DNA of 64,000 nt from Patescibacteria group bacterium (GCA_022703645.1 JAKLDG010000001.1:669254-733253); one strand, 5' to 3'. Shown: positions 15,035-40,827, counted from the stretch's first letter. Numbers and translations: made by a program. The notes: generated by a model not told the origin, from the letters alone.

Positions 15035-15073
15035 TTGTTTGTTTTCTTGCTTTATTGTTTTTTAATTTATTAT

Positions 15074-15144
15074 TGCGGGATCGTCTAGCGGTAGGACACA
15101 AGCCTTTGAAGCTTGGTACCCTGGTTCGAATCCAGGTCCCGCAG
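15074..15144 (+). tRNA. tRNA-Gln (anticodon UUG)
   Basis: Cloverleaf read by eye: acceptor UGCGGGA/UCCCGCA (U1-A72 typical of bacterial tRNA-Gln), discriminator G, anticodon loop CUUUGAA, T-arm CCUGG-UUCGAAU-CCAGG; no encoded CCA. Confidence 0.85.
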
Positions 15145-15215
15145 TTTTAAAACGAATTCGCGATTTTTGGGAATTTTCCGGCCGAATTTCTGAAATTCCG
15201 AATTAAAATTATATT

Positions 15216-15749
15216 ATGCAAAAACTTCTCCTCCATACCTGCTGTGCTCCTTGTTCAGCATACGTACTTAAGTTATTAGAAACATTTGATGTTTCTGTTT
15301 TTTATTACAATCCAAATATTGACACTGCCGATGAATATGAGAAAAGAAAAAATGAATGTCAGAAATATTGTGAAAAAAATGGAATAAAATTTATTGAAAT
15401 CACGTATCAACCAAAAGAATGGCAATTATATATAGAAGGACTGGAAAGCGAACCAGAAGGCGGGAAAAGATGCGAGAAGTGTTTTGAGCTGAGATTAACC
15501 AAAACTGCCGAATTCGCTTTGAAGAATGGATTTGATTATTTTGCCACTACCCTCTCTATTAGCCCTCATAAAAATTCTAAACTAATAAATGAGATTGGTA
15601 ATAAAATTGCAAATCAATTCGGACTAAAATTTTTAGAAGCCGATTGGAAAAAAGAAGATGGTTATAAGAAATCATGCGAGATTTCTAGGAATGAAGGGTT
15701 TTATCGCCAAAACTATTGCGGATGCAAGTATTCAAACTGGAAAAAGTGA
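15216..15749 (+). CDS. queH: epoxyqueuosine reductase QueH (DUF208)
   Basis: N-terminal LLLHTCCAPCS, YNPNI, CEKC and YCGC cysteine clusters typical of QueH. Confidence 0.8.
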   Translation: MQKLLLHTCCAPCSAYVLKLLETFDVSVFYYNPNIDTADEYEKRKNECQKYCEKNGIKFIEITYQPKEWQLYIEGLESEPEGGKRCEKCFELRLTKTAEFALKNGFDYFATTLSISPHKNSKLINEIGNKIANQFGLKFLEADWKKEDGYKKSCEISRNEGFYRQNYCGCKYSNWKK

Positions 15750-36616: not shown

Positions 36617-36757
36617 AAACTGGATTTAATGGACGAAATCCGAACTTTTTTTCAAAATAATCCGGATTCCGAATGAATGAATTTGCGGGGCGTCCTGTGG
36701 GGGGGGCAGGATCGCCCCGCCTGAATCCCAAAATCCAAAATTTCCGCCGCCGCTTTT
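36617..36757. repeat. IR-A, 141-bp arm of a perfect inverted repeat (partner 39007-39147)
   Basis: Exact reverse complement of 39007-39147 on base-by-base reading; contains GC-rich hairpin gcggggcgtcctg-tggggggg-caggatcgccccgc. Confidence 0.85.
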
Positions 36758-36808
36758 ATTGTTTTATTTTATTATAACAAAAAACAATAAGAGAACAAAG
36801 CGATTCGA

Positions 36809-37561
36809 TTATTTCTTTTTGAGAGCATCCCAGAGAAGATTAAATACTATTCTTTGGTTGCTTGCGATTTCTTCGGATTCTATAATGATTCCGATCTTAT
36901 CTTTTTGAAAAGACATAATTGCAACCTTATTCTGATAAATATTAATTTCATTAGTCATCGGAAATTGATCAGCAGGCAAGGCAATGGTTTTGCGCAATTC
37001 CTTTTTGTTTTCTTTAATATGTATTTTTGAATAACTATCAAATGGTAATAAACCTCGCGCACTAATCTTCTTTTTAACCCTTCTCTTTACATATGACTTC
37101 AAAAAACTTTCCGGGATGATTCTATATGCTTCTTCAAAACCAGCATAAGCTAGAATCTCAGAACCGCTGGGCTGATTAAGCGTGTCTTCGTAAACTTTTT
37201 TGATTCCTTCAACCCCTTCGTAGAATCTAACCTTTGGTTTTGACTTATCTTCTCTTTGACCAAGAATATTATTGAGATCAGGTGTAATTTGATTCACAAT
37301 ATCTTTTTGTTTTTCAATAACTCGTTCTAATTCCTTGGGGTCAGCTACATCATATAGCTTTCTTCCGCCTACGGCAGTTTCAATAATAAAACTTCGATTC
37401 TTTAGAGTATCTAGAAATGAATATACTGTAGTTCTCTTAATACCTGATTTTAAAGCAATTTGAGTAATGTTTGCAGGACCAAATTCTAACAGAGATAAAT
37501 AGATTTTTGACTCTTTATCATTAAGGCCGAGTTGTTCTAATAGCGGAACTATTGTTCTCAT
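36809..37561 (-). CDS. TrmB-family transcriptional regulator (wHTH + TrmB C-domain)
   Basis: N-terminal LSLLEFGPANITQIALKSGIKRTTVYSFLDTL. Confidence 0.7.
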   Translation of the reverse strand: MRTIVPLLEQLGLNDKESKIYLSLLEFGPANITQIALKSGIKRTTVYSFLDTLKNRSFIIETAVGGRKLYDVADPKELERVIEKQKDIVNQITPDLNNILGQREDKSKPKVRFYEGVEGIKKVYEDTLNQPSGSEILAYAGFEEAYRIIPESFLKSYVKRRVKKKISARGLLPFDSYSKIHIKENKKELRKTIALPADQFPMTNEINIYQNKVAIMSFQKDKIGIIIESEEIASNQRIVFNLLWDALKKK

Positions 37562-37690
37562 AGTGTTGACATTATTTTCGTCACTAGCATTATATTTTGT
37601 ATTTAACCTGATGTCAACAGTGTATTTTTACAGGGTAATTGACGGAATATATTGAATTGGCAGTGTGTAAAATCAGTGACAAAAGTATTG

Positions 37691-37719
37691 ACAACGTCTT
37701 TGATTTGTGCTATAATGTA
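37691..37719 (+). promoter_or_regulatory. canonical sigma70 promoter with ~120-nt GC-rich leader upstream of the 37847 ORF
   Basis: TTGACA - 17 bp - TATAAT; leader ...ccctcgtaccgcctatcgcggacgaaatctacgccggcgggctaaaaacgcggagaaactaaaATG. Confidence 0.45.
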
Positions 37720-37846
37720 TTCGTAAAGATGAGAGATGGAAATAACGGTTGCAAGACGAACCTTCACAATAGCAAACAAAAAACCCTCGTACCGCCTATC
37801 GCGGACGAAATCTACGCCGGCGGGCTAAAAACGCGGAGAAACTAAA

Positions 37847-38149
37847 ATGAACAAGAAACTAGCTCTGATTGTAGATTTTATCACAGAAGTACACTCGAAA
37901 GAGATAGGTTGTATGTGCTGTGCTGATACTAATGAGGGAAATGACATGGTGGGACGCCTTAACAAGGCTATCGTGGCTATGCTCAATGCATTGTTAAGTG
38001 AGGAAGAGAAGTTGAAGTATGCAACAAAATTTCAAAGTTGCTATGAGCACGACGGTAGTGGCAAGGGCATTGTTATAAAAACGGTTGTTGGGGGCCATTG
38101 TATTTCAAAGTCAGGGTTTATCGCAACTTTGAAAGAAATTATGACCTAA
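37847..38149 (+). CDS. small Cys-rich hypothetical protein (100 aa)
   Basis: SD ggag 8 nt before ATG; CMCC...C...H...GGHC residues suggest metal binding. Confidence 0.45.
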   Translation: MNKKLALIVDFITEVHSKEIGCMCCADTNEGNDMVGRLNKAIVAMLNALLSEEEKLKYATKFQSCYEHDGSGKGIVIKTVVGGHCISKSGFIATLKEIMT

Positions 38150-38258
38150 TAATTTACTGGTTTAACGGTTTTCCTTAAAAACCGTTTCCATTTAATTACA
38201 AGTTCCCGGTTTCAGAAGCTGTACCATAAACAGCTTCTTTTCTTTATTTCTATTTTTT

Positions 38259-38654
38259 TTAAAGTAGTTCTTTCCCATGTAATATCTCAATTACTTCATG
38301 CCAATCAAAAGCTAATTTAAGATTGATGGCTTCCTCATAAGAAAACCAATTCCAATCATCCGCTTCTTCTTTTTGGATCTTAATATCTCCAGACCAATTT
38401 CCATAAAAACGATATAGAATCATTTCATTTGTTCCCACCATATATGGACCTGTCTTAACAAGTTCCGTTGGTTCAAAATCAAGACCAACTTCTTCTTTGG
38501 TCTCTCGAATGGCGGTTTGCTCAGGAGTTTCTCCTTCGTCGGCCTTACCGCCAGGGCTTGCCCAACAATCTGGAAATACCCTTTCTCGACCTGACCTCTT
38601 AATAAGAAGGATTTTTTTATCTTTAATAATAATTGATGCTGATGCTATTTTCAT
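38259..38654 (-). CDS. NUDIX hydrolase
   Basis: Nudix box GGKADEGETPEQTAIRETKEEVGL. Confidence 0.8.
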   Translation of the reverse strand: MKIASASIIIKDKKILLIKRSGRERVFPDCWASPGGKADEGETPEQTAIRETKEEVGLDFEPTELVKTGPYMVGTNEMILYRFYGNWSGDIKIQKEEADDWNWFSYEEAINLKLAFDWHEVIEILHGKELL

Positions 38655-38658
38655 TTTA

Positions 38659-38865
38659 TTATTTTATTAAATCATCTACTTGTACTTTTAATGCATTTGC
38701 AATCTTTTGCAGAGTTTCAATAGTGGGATTAGTTATGGCGCTGTTTTCAATTTTGATAATTGAATTATAAGAAACCCCCGCTAGCTTCGAAAGACGATCC
38801 TGAGACAAATCTTGGGTCTTTCTGAGCCTTTTAATGTTCTTGCTTATTTTGTTTTCTTTTTTCAT
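38659..38865 (-). CDS. XRE-family helix-turn-helix transcriptional regulator
   Basis: LRKTQDLSQDRLSKLAGVSYNSIIKIENS HTH_3; 4-nt gap to the NUDIX gene on the same strand. Confidence 0.75.
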   Translation of the reverse strand: MKKENKISKNIKRLRKTQDLSQDRLSKLAGVSYNSIIKIENSAITNPTIETLQKIANALKVQVDDLIK

Positions 38866-39006
38866 ACTTGTATTATAATAATAGTATGCTATTATTGTAT
38901 TGAATAAGTTATCTTATAGTAAAATCCTATTATTAAAATACATTATCTCCCCTGTTTTTGCAAGGGAGTCCTTATCACACGCGCACGGGTTGGGTGGGGC
39001 AAGTGT

Positions 39007-39147
39007 GAAAAGCGGCGGCGGAAATTTTGGATTTTGGGATTCAGGCGGGGCGATCCTGCCCCCCCACAGGACGCCCCGCAAATTCATTCATTCGGAATCC
39101 GGATTATTTTGAAAAAAAGTTCGGATTTCGTCCATTAAATCCAGTTT
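39007..39147. repeat. IR-B, inverted partner of IR-A
   Basis: Exact reverse complement of 36617-36757; overlaps repeat R by the 7 bp CCAGTTT. Confidence 0.85.
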
Positions 39148-39226
39148 CCGCTGAAAAATTAAATTCCGAGGGATTTTTTGGCCGAATTTCTGAAATTCCG
39201 AATTAAATTTTTCCAGTATTTTCCAC
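39141..39226. repeat. repeat R, 86-bp arm of a perfect inverted repeat (partner 40675-40760) upstream of the recombinase
   Basis: ccagtttccgctgaaaaattaaattccgagggattttttggccgaatttctgaaattccgaattaaatttttccagtattttccac; a ~38-bp core also occurs 3' of tRNA-Gln(UUG) at 15170-15207. Confidence 0.85.
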
Positions 39227-39280
39227 GAATTTTTTCGAGCCGATCTTTTGCCCAAAAGCGATTAAACAAAAGGAGGAAAT

Positions 39281-40786
39281 ATGAAATATTTTATCTACGC
39301 AAGAAAATCAACAGACGAACCGGAAAGACAAGTTCTTTCTATTGAAGCTCAAATCACAGAGTTGAAAGAACTTGCGGAGCGAGAGCATATTGAAATTGTA
39401 AATACATTTATAGAATCCCAAACGGCCAAAGAACCCGGCAGACCTATTTTCAATAATATGCTCTCGCGAATGGAAAAAGGAGAAGCTCAGGGAATTTTAG
39501 CGTGGCATCCTGATCGTCTTGCTCGCAACTCTGTAGATGGTGGCAGAGTTATCTATCTCATTGATACAGGACATATCACAGCGCTAAAATTTCCGACTTT
39601 CTGGTTCGATCCCACACCGCAAGGAAAGTTTATGTTATCAATCGCTTTTGGGCAATCAAAGTATTACATTGATAATCTTTCGGAGAATGTCAAAAGAGGC
39701 CTAAGACAAAAAGTAAGACACGGAGAACAAGTCGGAGTAGCTCCCACAGGCTATCTCAATGACAAGCTAAATCACAAAATAATTCCCGACCCAGCAAAAA
39801 TTATTTTAATTCAAAAACTTTTTGAAATGTACTCCACAGGAAACCATTCTCTGAAATCTCTCCGAAAGATTATCAATGATCTTGGCTTGACTTCTCGCAA
39901 TAATAAACCGCTTTCAGTTTCCAATGTTCAGTTTATTTTAAGTTCACCTTTTTACTACGGAGCATTTATGTTCAAGGGTGAACTACATCAAGGAAAGCAT
40001 GAGCCAGCAATTTCAAAGAAACTTTTTGATAGATGCCAAGAGATTATGCAAACCAAATCACACAAAGTTACGAAAAGCGTGATAGAATATCCATTTCGCA
40101 AATTGCTTCAATGTGGCGAGTGCGGATGTTCTATAACCAGTGAAATACAAAAAGGTCACAATTATTATCATTGCACCAAGAAGCGCGAAAAGTGTTTTCA
40201 ACCCTACATCCGCGAAGAATCTCTCGCCACAAACATTTGCGAAACACTTCAAAAAGTTTCTTTGAATCCAGATTGGGCTGACGACATGATTCAAACATTA
40301 AATAACGAAAAACAGGACACCGCCCAATCTGATGCCCTTTTTGCTCAAAAGATGAAAAACGAAATCGCAGGACACGACGAGAAACTTCAAGATCTACTTG
40401 ACCTCATGTTGGAGAAAGTAATTTCTAAAGACGAATACACTGCTAAAAAGCAAACCGTGCTCAACCAAAAAATAGACATTCAAGAAAAATTGAAGGTTTT
40501 TGAGCAAAAGGGCAATTGCTGGCTCGAACGTGCGAGAACTTATATTTTAGACGCTAAACAAGCCAAGATTATATCTTTGAATAAGAATTTTTCAGAAATG
40601 AAAAATTTCTTAAAAAAGATCGGCTCGAACCCGCTCCTGCGGGATAGAGAAATTACCATTTCTCTCAAAAATGAGTGGAAAATACTGGAAAAATTTAATT
40701 CGGAATTTCAGAAATTCGGCCAAAAAATCCCTCGGAATTTAATTTTTCAGCGGAAACTGGGAGGCCTGGATTCGAACCAGGGTTAA
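39281..40786 (+). CDS. large serine recombinase (resolvase N-domain + recombinase domain + zinc ribbon)
   Basis: MKYFIYARKSTDEPERQVLSIEAQ... catalytic Ser region; CGECGC...HYYHC zinc ribbon; last ~35 codons lie inside repeat R' and tRNA-Gln(CUG). Confidence 0.85.
   Translation: MKYFIYARKSTDEPERQVLSIEAQITELKELAEREHIEIVNTFIESQTAKEPGRPIFNNMLSRMEKGEAQGILAWHPDRLARNSVDGGRVIYLIDTGHITALKFPTFWFDPTPQGKFMLSIAFGQSKYYIDNLSENVKRGLRQKVRHGEQVGVAPTGYLNDKLNHKIIPDPAKIILIQKLFEMYSTGNHSLKSLRKIINDLGLTSRNNKPLSVSNVQFILSSPFYYGAFMFKGELHQGKHEPAISKKLFDRCQEIMQTKSHKVTKSVIEYPFRKLLQCGECGCSITSEIQKGHNYYHCTKKREKCFQPYIREESLATNICETLQKVSLNPDWADDMIQTLNNEKQDTAQSDALFAQKMKNEIAGHDEKLQDLLDLMLEKVISKDEYTAKKQTVLNQKIDIQEKLKVFEQKGNCWLERARTYILDAKQAKIISLNKNFSEMKNFLKKIGSNPLLRDREITISLKNEWKILEKFNSEFQKFGQKIPRNLIFQRKLGGLDSNQG
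40675..40760. repeat. repeat R', inverted partner of R, abutting and including the 3' CCAG of tRNA-Gln(CUG)
   Basis: Exact reverse complement of 39141-39226. Confidence 0.85.
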
Positions 40787-40827
40787 CGGCTTCAGAGGCC
40801 GCTGTCCTACCACTAGACGATCTCCCA
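40757..40827 (-). tRNA. tRNA-Gln (anticodon CUG)
   Basis: Reverse complement: UGGGAGA-UC-GUCU..GGAC-A-GCGGC-CUCUGAA-GCCGU-UAAC-CCUGG-UUCGAAU-CCAGG-CCUCCCA-G; paralogous to the tRNA at 15074; A7:C66 mismatch in acceptor stem. Confidence 0.75.

Follow-up and report, generated by a model that had tools for sequence, protein, structure and literature searches.

Programmed DNA inversion of the Hin/Gin type uses a small serine recombinase with a C-terminal helix-turn-helix (HTH) domain, encoded beside or outside the invertible segment, and inverted sites of about 26 bp together with an enhancer. In Myxococcus phage Mx8 (intP/intX) and in archaeal elements of the SSV1 type, the attachment site of the element (attP) lies within the integrase gene, and the integrated and free forms encode different proteins; these integrases are tyrosine recombinases. 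Flp of the yeast 2-micron plasmid, also a tyrosine recombinase, itself recombines its two identical sites, and the 2-micron circle replicates autonomously and uses the inversion for copy-number amplification. For the large serine integrases, the literature (PMC3783163) gives the motif bound by the zinc-ribbon domain as shifted by 5 bp between attP and the host site attB, and states that phage-type members do not recombine attP with the junction sites attL or attR. We analyzed a 64,000-nt stretch (34% G+C) of the genome of a Patescibacteria group bacterium (GCA_022703645.1 JAKLDG010000001.1:669254-733253), hereafter called the window; all coordinates are positions in it. Positions 36617-40760 are probably an integrated cargo island of 4.14 kb, which belongs to a Patescibacteria family of large serine integrases inserting at the 3' ends of tRNA genes and carries a spare, inverted attP. 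Genomes of the Patescibacteria, or Candidate Phyla Radiation (CPR), are tiny, and little has been described of their mobile elements; the integrase family is abundant, with thousands of homologues and hundreds of loci.

Anatomy of the island and its attachment sites

An initial annotation of the window had described an insertion adjoining tRNA-Gln with a large serine recombinase and direct 7-bp repeats at its two bounds, and this reading, with the recombinase as the enzyme that made the insertion, was borne out. The island contains two long inverted repeats (IRs). In IR2, as previously noted, 39141-39226 is the exact reverse complement of 40675-40760 over 86/86 nt. IR1 had been given as an exact 141-bp repeat with its partner at 39007-39147; the long repeat is real, but its 141-nt left arm (36617-36757) pairs with 140 nt starting at 39008, and one homopolymer base differs between the arms (G8 at 36699-36706 on the left versus C7 at 39059-39065 on the right), leaving exact blocks of 89 and 51 nt. 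This difference could be genuine or could be a homopolymer sequencing error. Chance cannot account for repeats so long and so nearly identical in 64 kb of this base composition. They overlap by the 7 nt CCAGTTT at 39141-39147, and AAACTGG occurs in direct orientation at 36617 and 40754, bounding the whole island; both observations agree with the earlier description, as does the identity of the right copy with the last 4 nt of tRNA-Gln(CUG) plus TTT. The tRNA gene is intact, and the direct repeat takes in its 3' end. An additional inverted match of 16 nt (39234-39249/40614-40629) indicates that IR2 was formerly about 147 nt long and that its left arm has since been shortened by 38 nt; a degenerate extension of this arm can be followed as far as 39249. 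Elsewhere in the window, the DNA of the element has no lengthy match except a short remnant at 15169-15207.

The two repeats had been regarded as separate systems. In the notation used here, B and B' are the host half-sites, P (on the int side) and P' are the element half-sites, and O is the common core AAACTGG. The two ends of the island, O-P' and P-O, are not inverted copies of one another; each end pairs with an internal copy. The order in the window is B-O-P' (36617), cargo with an XRE gene, the reverse complement of P-O-P' (39008-39226), int, and P-O-B' (40754, in tRNA-Gln). IR1 and IR2 are a single feature, namely one inverted internal copy of the int 3' end, attP and putative terminator, matched against attL on one side and attR on the other. 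At attL the core joins P' to host flank B, which is the upstream region of pepF, with TTAGAA at -12 to -17. The left arm of IR1 has an attP-type TCCGAAC motif 15 nt past the core and a GC-rich hairpin at 36685-36720.

Database searches detected 7977 homologues of the integrase (Int), and a genome scan confirmed 585 loci, 80 of which were retrieved and each compared with itself (loci are labelled L). Almost all of the 80 are labelled Patescibacteria/CPR. In the family, the int repeat extends from the int 3' end into a tRNA gene (Gln, Asn, Ser or Trp) of the opposite strand and ends a few nucleotides within it. Of the 80 loci, 63 had an IR of 70 bp or more flanking int, with arms at least 97% identical in 44 and 100% identical in 27. 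A second IR was found in 13 loci with enough upstream sequence, where it abuts the first or overlaps it by 4-18 nt, like in the window.

The half-sites of the family have a regular geometry. The T-arm motif TTCGAAC of the tRNA half-site begins 9-11 nt past the end of shared identity, and the motif TCCGAAC/TTCGAAC of the P' arm begins at 14-16 nt. The offset of TYCGAAC (P' minus tRNA), scored on right half-sites only, was exactly 5 nt in 42 of the 47 loci that could be scored; the window has the motif at 15 nt in P' versus 10 nt, the attB-type spacing, in tRNA-Gln(CUG). This offset matches the attP/attB signature of large serine integrases (PMC3783163), and the element arm thus mimics the T-arm of the tRNA, displaced from its register by half a helical turn. 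The half-site geometry indicates that attL is at 36617 and attR at 40754, and that a bona fide attP, centred on 39141-39147, is kept within the integrated element.

The 501-aa serine recombinase of the int module, described initially together with the position of its C-terminal codons within the right arm of IR2, is of the integrase type, in accord with its Pfam domains, its best profile match and the attP/attB geometry. The protein contains Resolvase (PF00239, 1.5e-20), Recombinase (PF07508, 1.7e-15) and Zn_ribbon_recom (PF13408, 3.7e-6) domains, and the best profile match was the phage integrase family phrog_95 (2.7e-76). Matches in the Protein Data Bank (PDB) were to catalytic domains only, and the sequence is very distant from the phage-type large serine integrases. 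The IS607 model covered 80 residues of the catalytic domain with 24.8 bits, against a cutoff of 110.

The window has a second tRNA-Gln gene, tRNA-Gln(UUG) at 15073-15145 on the plus strand, and an inverted P-arm remnant of about 60 nt with C-terminal int codons lies directly 3' of it (15146-15207). The remnant is 92% identical over 39 nt to IR2 of the island and 96% identical over 48 nt to the left arm of L001. A host gene (15216-15749) comes directly after the remnant, which looks like the scar of an earlier, related element at the other tRNA-Gln gene.

Integrase tails, arrangements and cargo across the family

The last eight codons of Int as integrated (GGLDSNQG) are antisense tRNA-Gln. Judged by its reading frame, the native int gene spans attP, and its last 17 codons and the putative terminator lie in P'. 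Throughout the family, the open reading frame (ORF) in the P-O-P' register runs about 17-20 codons further to a conserved stop, with the tail consensus xxL(N/D)(E/K)(I/V)RTFFx(E/Q)NP(D/E)x(E/D)F; the version in the window is DLMDEIRTFFQNNPDSE. The conserved proline of the tail is encoded by CCG in 9 cases, CCC in 6, CCT in 5 and CCA in 4, and this use of all four codons indicates that the tail is selected at the protein level, beyond any DNA motif. The tail is intact even where it is detached from int, which implies that the P-O-P' configuration is one that the elements adopt regularly. Inversion of the int module, which was thought at first to leave the recombinase ORF intact, would in fact exchange the eight antisense codons for the native 17-codon DLMDEIRTFFQNNPDSE.

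An AlphaFold model of a native-tail homologue, read for secondary structure only (its pTM score of 0.37 is too low for docking or a fold search), places the tail as a C-terminal helix at residues 492-506, after a disordered linker and beyond the zinc-ribbon/coiled-coil domain, with medium confidence. In the homologue P0012, helices 331-379, 384-411 and 414-434 between the zinc-ribbon strands form a long coiled coil, likewise at medium confidence. Tails were tRNA-derived in 138 of the 182 full-length database proteins of the family and native in 14, and both types were present within single clusters at 90% protein identity. Int variants of 496 aa were considered as a free or flipped state and rejected; their loci are ordinary insertions at tRNA-Gln(UUG), in which the antisense reading gives an early stop. 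A second type of tail, CAFE(K/N)IRT(D/E)F..., also exists.

A circle with two inverted attP sites has two isomers, and either attP could be used, which predicts four integrated arrangements. All four were present among the relatives. In the first, which is that of the window and of most loci, int reads into the tRNA gene and the XRE gene lies beside the 5' end of int. In the second, with flipped cargo (L001, L090 and L017), int is oriented as in the window and the XRE segment is inverted; L001 and L090 share the backbone of the window, with nucleotide identities of 87% in int, 89% in the XRE gene and 90-93% in P'. In the third, with flipped int (L105), the tRNA gene is upstream of an intact native int and the XRE gene directly follows the int 3' end. 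In the fourth, with both flipped (L104 and L071), the tRNA gene is again upstream of an intact native int and the XRE gene is at the far end. The int-flipped arrangements were scored from L071, L104 and L105. The first arrangement accounted for roughly 90% of scorable loci. The expectation that repeat-bounded modules would be found in both orientations was thus confirmed among the relatives, but the dominance of one isomer among genomes does not indicate a fast programmed switch.

Several other loci were unusual in their layout. L006, L020 and L026, with a tRNA gene upstream of int, were rejected as flipped isomers, since these loci end at the repeat and are indistinguishable from the two-tRNA arrangement of L047 and L079. 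In the latter two (L047:5634-7569 and L079:53-2044), int-only units lie between inverted tRNA-Ser genes (two gga copies in L047, gct and gga in L079), with attR-type junctions on both sides and no cargo nearby; such units may derive from cassette exchange between two tRNA sites, from inversion between them, or from gene conversion that spread across the core. L050:232-7701 is an array in which two int genes flank one cargo and attP-type sites alternate in orientation. In each of L011, L023 and L048, a P'-type arm unlike the upstream one adjoins the 3' end of int. Contig ends at int were also considered as a sign of orientation heterogeneity, and this was rejected because the inverted repeat alone accounts for the breaks.

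The arms of an element evolve in concert. Their identity within an element had a median of 0.99, versus 0.85 to the nearest other element, and was the higher of the two in 55 of 63 loci. In diverged members, the inner boundary of the repeat lies at a conserved KKIGSNPLL motif. These identities and the shared boundary indicate that the duplication is old and has been homogenized since; the perfect identity of the arms had been taken as a sign of recent formation, whereas the architecture is ancient and family-wide.

Four signs of mobility were observed: identical IR arms in metagenome-assembled genomes (MAGs) that belong to separate CPR classes, one and the same Int (at least 90% identity) at different tRNA genes, insertions between adjacent tRNA genes (L025 and L033), and the remnant P arm behind the second tRNA-Gln gene of the window. 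The IR2 arms of L036/L057 and of L046/L049/L051/L052 are 97-100% identical across candidate phyla or classes, and some of the MAGs concerned are mis-binned as archaea or Elusimicrobiota. Near-identical arms across phyla and classes suggest that single lineages of the element have recently spread horizontally. Viral contigs hardly contain the family, with two relatives among 2.9 million.

In eight samples (L093-L100), the integrase P0184 was found with EcoRV-type restriction-modification, DUF3800 and DUF2130 cargo between tRNA-Gln(UUG) and dnaX. The left flank is a convergent tRNA-Gln(CUG) gene in one sample (L093:4242-4555) and a SurA-like gene in the others (L094-L100). The internal P arm of this lineage is diverged, and its 195-bp P' repeat is 97-99% identical in most samples and 94% identical in L095.

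The features of the window are listed in Table 1. Like Int, the protein encoded by the neighbouring pepF gene is identical to a GenBank entry from a Patescibacteria MAG. Its cargo (TrmB-like, NUDIX and XRE genes and small ORFs) includes no structural, packaging or lysis gene of a prophage, and no replication gene was found in the element, which is seen integrated. The XRE gene abuts the internal attP copy with its upstream region. A divergent XRE gene of 65-71 aa lies 400-900 nt upstream of int in 21 related loci as well as in the window; as a conserved neighbour, it is only a candidate regulator. The back-to-back promoters at 37589-37716, between the TrmB-like gene and the ORFs of 68 and 100 aa, are unusually strong for an AT-rich genome. 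The reality of the 68-aa ORF (37639-37845), which precedes that of 100 aa, is uncertain. Elsewhere in the family the cargo varies and includes GmrSD, Mrr, EcoRI-type and N6 methylases, Schlafen/AlbA, RelA/SpoT, DHDPS and multicopper oxidase genes.

Table 1. Features of the tRNA-Gln island in the window. O, core; P and P', element half-sites; B', host half-site; rc, reverse complement.
Feature	Position	Strand	Basis or remark
Core O of attL (AAACTGG)	36617-36623	+	Direct copy of 40754-40760; three-site comparison
IR1 left arm, O + P'	36617-36757	+	Orphaned native int 3' end
Orphaned native int tail, 17 codons and stop, DLMDEIRTFFQNNPDSE	36623-36676	+	Inside IR1 left arm
Predicted TrmB-family transcription regulator, 250 aa	36809-37561	-	Pfam PF01978, 9e-14; NCBIfam weak
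Divergent sigma-70-like promoters, TTGACA-17-TATAAT on both strands	37589-37716		Both 12/12
Protein of 100 aa without family match	37847-38149	+	ORF
Predicted NUDIX hydrolase, 131 aa	38259-38654	-	Pfam PF00293, 2e-25
Predicted XRE-family HTH protein, 68 aa, divergent from int	38659-38865	-	Pfam HTH_3, 5e-16
IR1 right arm, rc of O + P'	39008-39147	-	P' half of internal attP copy; native tail codons and putative terminator hairpin
IR2 left arm, rc of P + O	39141-39226	-	P half of internal attP; non-expressed int codons 465-494
int, large serine integrase, 501 aa as integrated (native form 510 aa)	39281-40786	+	Pfam; identical to GenBank HRY59857.1
IR2 right arm, P + O	40675-40760	+	int codons 465-494; P half of attR
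Core O of attR (AAACTGG)	40754-40760	+	tRNA last 4 nt plus TTT
tRNA-Gln(CUG), B' half of target	40757-40827	-	ARAGORN; Rfam 58.9 bits

A GC-rich hairpin follows the native stop codon in most P' arms of the family, and a terminator or a protein-binding site are its candidate roles. It recurs as a module with G-run or C-run loops (GGGGGTTGGGGGG / CCCCCCAACCCCC; window copies at 36685-36720 and 39045-39079), and its orientation differs among elements (L017, L024, L025, L038, L043 and L055 versus L048; L016, L023, L068 and L071). A known RNA was rejected as an explanation of the P' arm, the Rfam matches being below threshold (IMPDH RNA, 24 bits against a cutoff of 95), and the fold of the arm was not unusual compared with shuffled sequences (z = -0.8).

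Proposed mechanism and alternative explanations

We propose that Int integrates a circle of about 4.1 kb at the 3' end of a tRNA gene, and that the element can be excised and re-integrated. The excised form would be a 4137-bp circle, divided by two inverted attP repeats of 234 bp into an int arc and a cargo arc. Two isomers of the circle would result from flip-flop between these repeats, and either attP could integrate. When the attP inside int is used, the native C-terminal helix would be replaced by the eight antisense-tRNA codons and the true 3' end of the gene would be moved to the far side of the island; this route would yield the common, stable form, whereas integration via the second attP would leave int intact. 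Single-module inversions and the homogenization of the arms would proceed by homologous recombination or gene conversion between arms of 86-300 bp and not by Int, because attP with attL or attR is not a pair that phage-type integrases recombine (PMC3783163). Loss of the native tail may change the activity of Int and so lock the common isomer, and the spare copy may allow a full-length int to be restored or to survive integration.

A further step, which we put forward tentatively and hold to be possible rather than probable, is that the spare int 3' end provides a built-in, factor-independent control of mobility by locking and re-arming. Integration would remove the C-terminal helix and lock the island; a rare inversion across the P arms of 86-147 bp would then rejoin int with its native 3' end and re-arm the element, and the same result would follow if the second attP were used for integration. 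On this reading, a serine-integrase element would control its directionality in a novel way. With its two attP sites, the circle would also permit natural cassette exchange or chromosomal inversion between tRNA genes, and the int-only units of L047 and L079 between inverted tRNA-Ser genes are a hint of such cassette exchange or tRNA-to-tRNA inversion. If this holds, the system would be a natural precedent for two-site integrase cassette exchange.

Several findings weigh against the integrated island with a spare attP as proposed here. The internal P arm is diverged in L001, L094 and L051, often in the 30-40 nt beside the core, indicating that the spare copy is not indispensable in perfect form. 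The predominance of one arrangement indicates that inversion is rare or counter-selected, and short contigs with native tails could have arisen where an assembler passed through the repeat. For the lineage of the window, neither an empty site nor an excised circle was found: an exact search of metagenome contigs with the pepF flank plus core gave no match, a search with core plus P' gave one 1.9-kb contig (L090) that merely repeats the L001 arrangement, and the pepF genes next closest in sequence, at about 60% identity, lie among other genes, so that synteny is lost. We identified no recombination directionality factor, and the sequence logo of the left half-sites (P and B) gave no clear symmetric motif. 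The XRE gene is absent in roughly a third of the loci with a long upstream flank. Finally, the importance of the tail is drawn from sequence conservation and a medium-confidence model (helix pLDDT about 66, pTM 0.37).

Among the other explanations, the one that survives best, although we consider it unlikely, is a programmed invertible switch of the Hin/Gin or shufflon style, in which Int would itself invert segments between the three cores and toggle its C-terminus or the expression of cargo at high frequency. The cores do alternate in orientation, each inversion would restore the same junction types, modules are found in both orientations among relatives, and inversion of the int module would exchange the C-terminal tail. 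However, the sites have the geometry of attL, attP and attR, recombination of attP with either junction site is not carried out by phage-type serine integrases (PMC3783163), and about 90% of loci are in a single arrangement. Int is no small invertase, its match to the DNA-invertase family phrog_125 being limited to the catalytic domain. Furthermore, identity reaches 80-300 bp past any plausible binding site, which homologous recombination fits better.

It is less probable still that the internal attP is primarily a regulatory operator, that is, a high-affinity Int site through which int and the XRE gene would be autoregulated, in the manner of res and the Tn3/gamma-delta resolvase, with the hairpin insulating int from transcription of the cargo and inversions being incidental. 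The position of the copy favors such a role, since in every case 55-120 nt separate it from the int start downstream and the divergent XRE gene lies on its other side; no strong promoter was predicted between the copy and the int ATG, and the P' arm holds a strong GC-rich hairpin. Yet about 50 bp would suffice for an operator, whereas 230-450 bp are identical to distant copies, the coding integrity of the detached tail is maintained, and all four arrangements occur. An operator role is compatible with the proposed explanation, and the two are not exclusive.

We find very little room for two nested or independent elements, in which the int module would be an autonomous, insertion sequence (IS)-like serine-recombinase transposon with 86-bp terminal inverted repeats (TIRs) beside a separate cargo cassette. 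The int-only units flanked by inverted tRNA-Ser genes (L047 and L079), the array with two int modules (L050) and the many short contigs with int only would fit this idea; against it, the supposed terminal repeats consist of the coding 3' end of int plus the core and are not transposon ends, a P' arm with attP spacing always lies outside the left arm, the 7-bp direct repeat flanks the whole island and not each module, and assembly breaks at the repeat account for the short contigs. The direct repeat of the island is a recombination core, and its repeats pair the ends with an internal copy, which sets it apart from IS and TIR transposons.

An assembly artefact, namely a chimeric inverted junction from mixed integrated and excised forms, can be practically dismissed: although IRs that exceed the k-mer length disrupt or mislead de Bruijn assembly, a contig ends within about 500 bp of int in about 55 of the 80 loci, and many contigs of 1.6-2 kb contain only int and both arms, the junctions 39007/39008 and 39226/39227 cannot be derived from attL, attR, attP and attB reads alone, the arms are diverged copies in some loci, contrary to collapse, the window sits in an 867-kb contig, and dozens of assemblies produced independently, from different groups, show the layout, among them a complete chromosome (L029, CP174360.1) and contigs 100-800 kb long.

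Comparison with known systems

As a serine-integrase island, the element is ordinary in principle, but its architecture is unusual, family-wide and apparently undescribed. No title or abstract in the open-access literature searched describes a T-arm attB, an attP in a serine-integrase gene of this kind or a retained attP. The family moves defence and metabolic genes between Patescibacteria lineages. Its integrase reads the universal tRNA T-arm as an attB half-site, which its own attP mimics with a shift of 5 bp. For genome engineering, the family is a source of numerous natural attP/attB pairs that follow a simple, readable rule, and of a natural double-attP layout like that of cassette exchange; if the C-terminal helix controls activity or direction, it would be a new handle on integrase directionality. 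CPR metagenome assemblies also break systematically at the element: int and both repeat arms make up the whole of hundreds of public contigs of 1.6-2 kb (clusters P0002, P0054 and P0060; loci L015, L059 and L064).

The initial annotation had held that the layout is neither that of a plain serine-integrase prophage nor that of a Hin/Gin switch, and we agree. Like Hin/Gin/Cin and gene-altering programmed inversions, the island has an IR-bounded segment whose inversion would exchange a coding 3' end. Unlike in Hin/Gin, the 501-aa recombinase is large, of the integrase type and inside the segment, the sites have attP/attL/attR geometry, one orientation predominates, and the repeats are 86-141 nt long, versus about 26-34 bp in Hin/Gin/Cin.

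The tycheposons of Prochlorococcus resemble the Patescibacteria islands in being small elements at tRNA genes of streamlined genomes, with variable cargo that includes defence and metabolic genes; to our knowledge, neither an internal inverted attP nor an integrase gene spanning attP has been described for them. Int is altered by integration, as the integrases of Mx8 and of SSV1-type elements are altered or split, and we know of no spare inverted copy of the integrase gene 3' end in those elements. Like the 2-micron plasmid with its Flp/FRT system, the predicted Patescibacteria circle would have two arcs, one of them encoding the recombinase, separated by site-bearing inverted repeats, and in both the isomers differ in the relative orientation of the arcs.

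The phage-type large serine integrases (Listeria A118/LI, phiC31, Bxb1 and SPbeta) share with Int the same catalytic, recombinase, zinc-ribbon and coiled-coil domains, a short core common to all sites and an element half-site motif located 5 bp further out. Unlike these integrases, the Patescibacteria element uses the acceptor and T-arm of a tRNA gene as its target half-site, has its attP inside the int ORF, carries a few kilobases of non-phage cargo, and keeps a second, inverted attP with long flanking identity.

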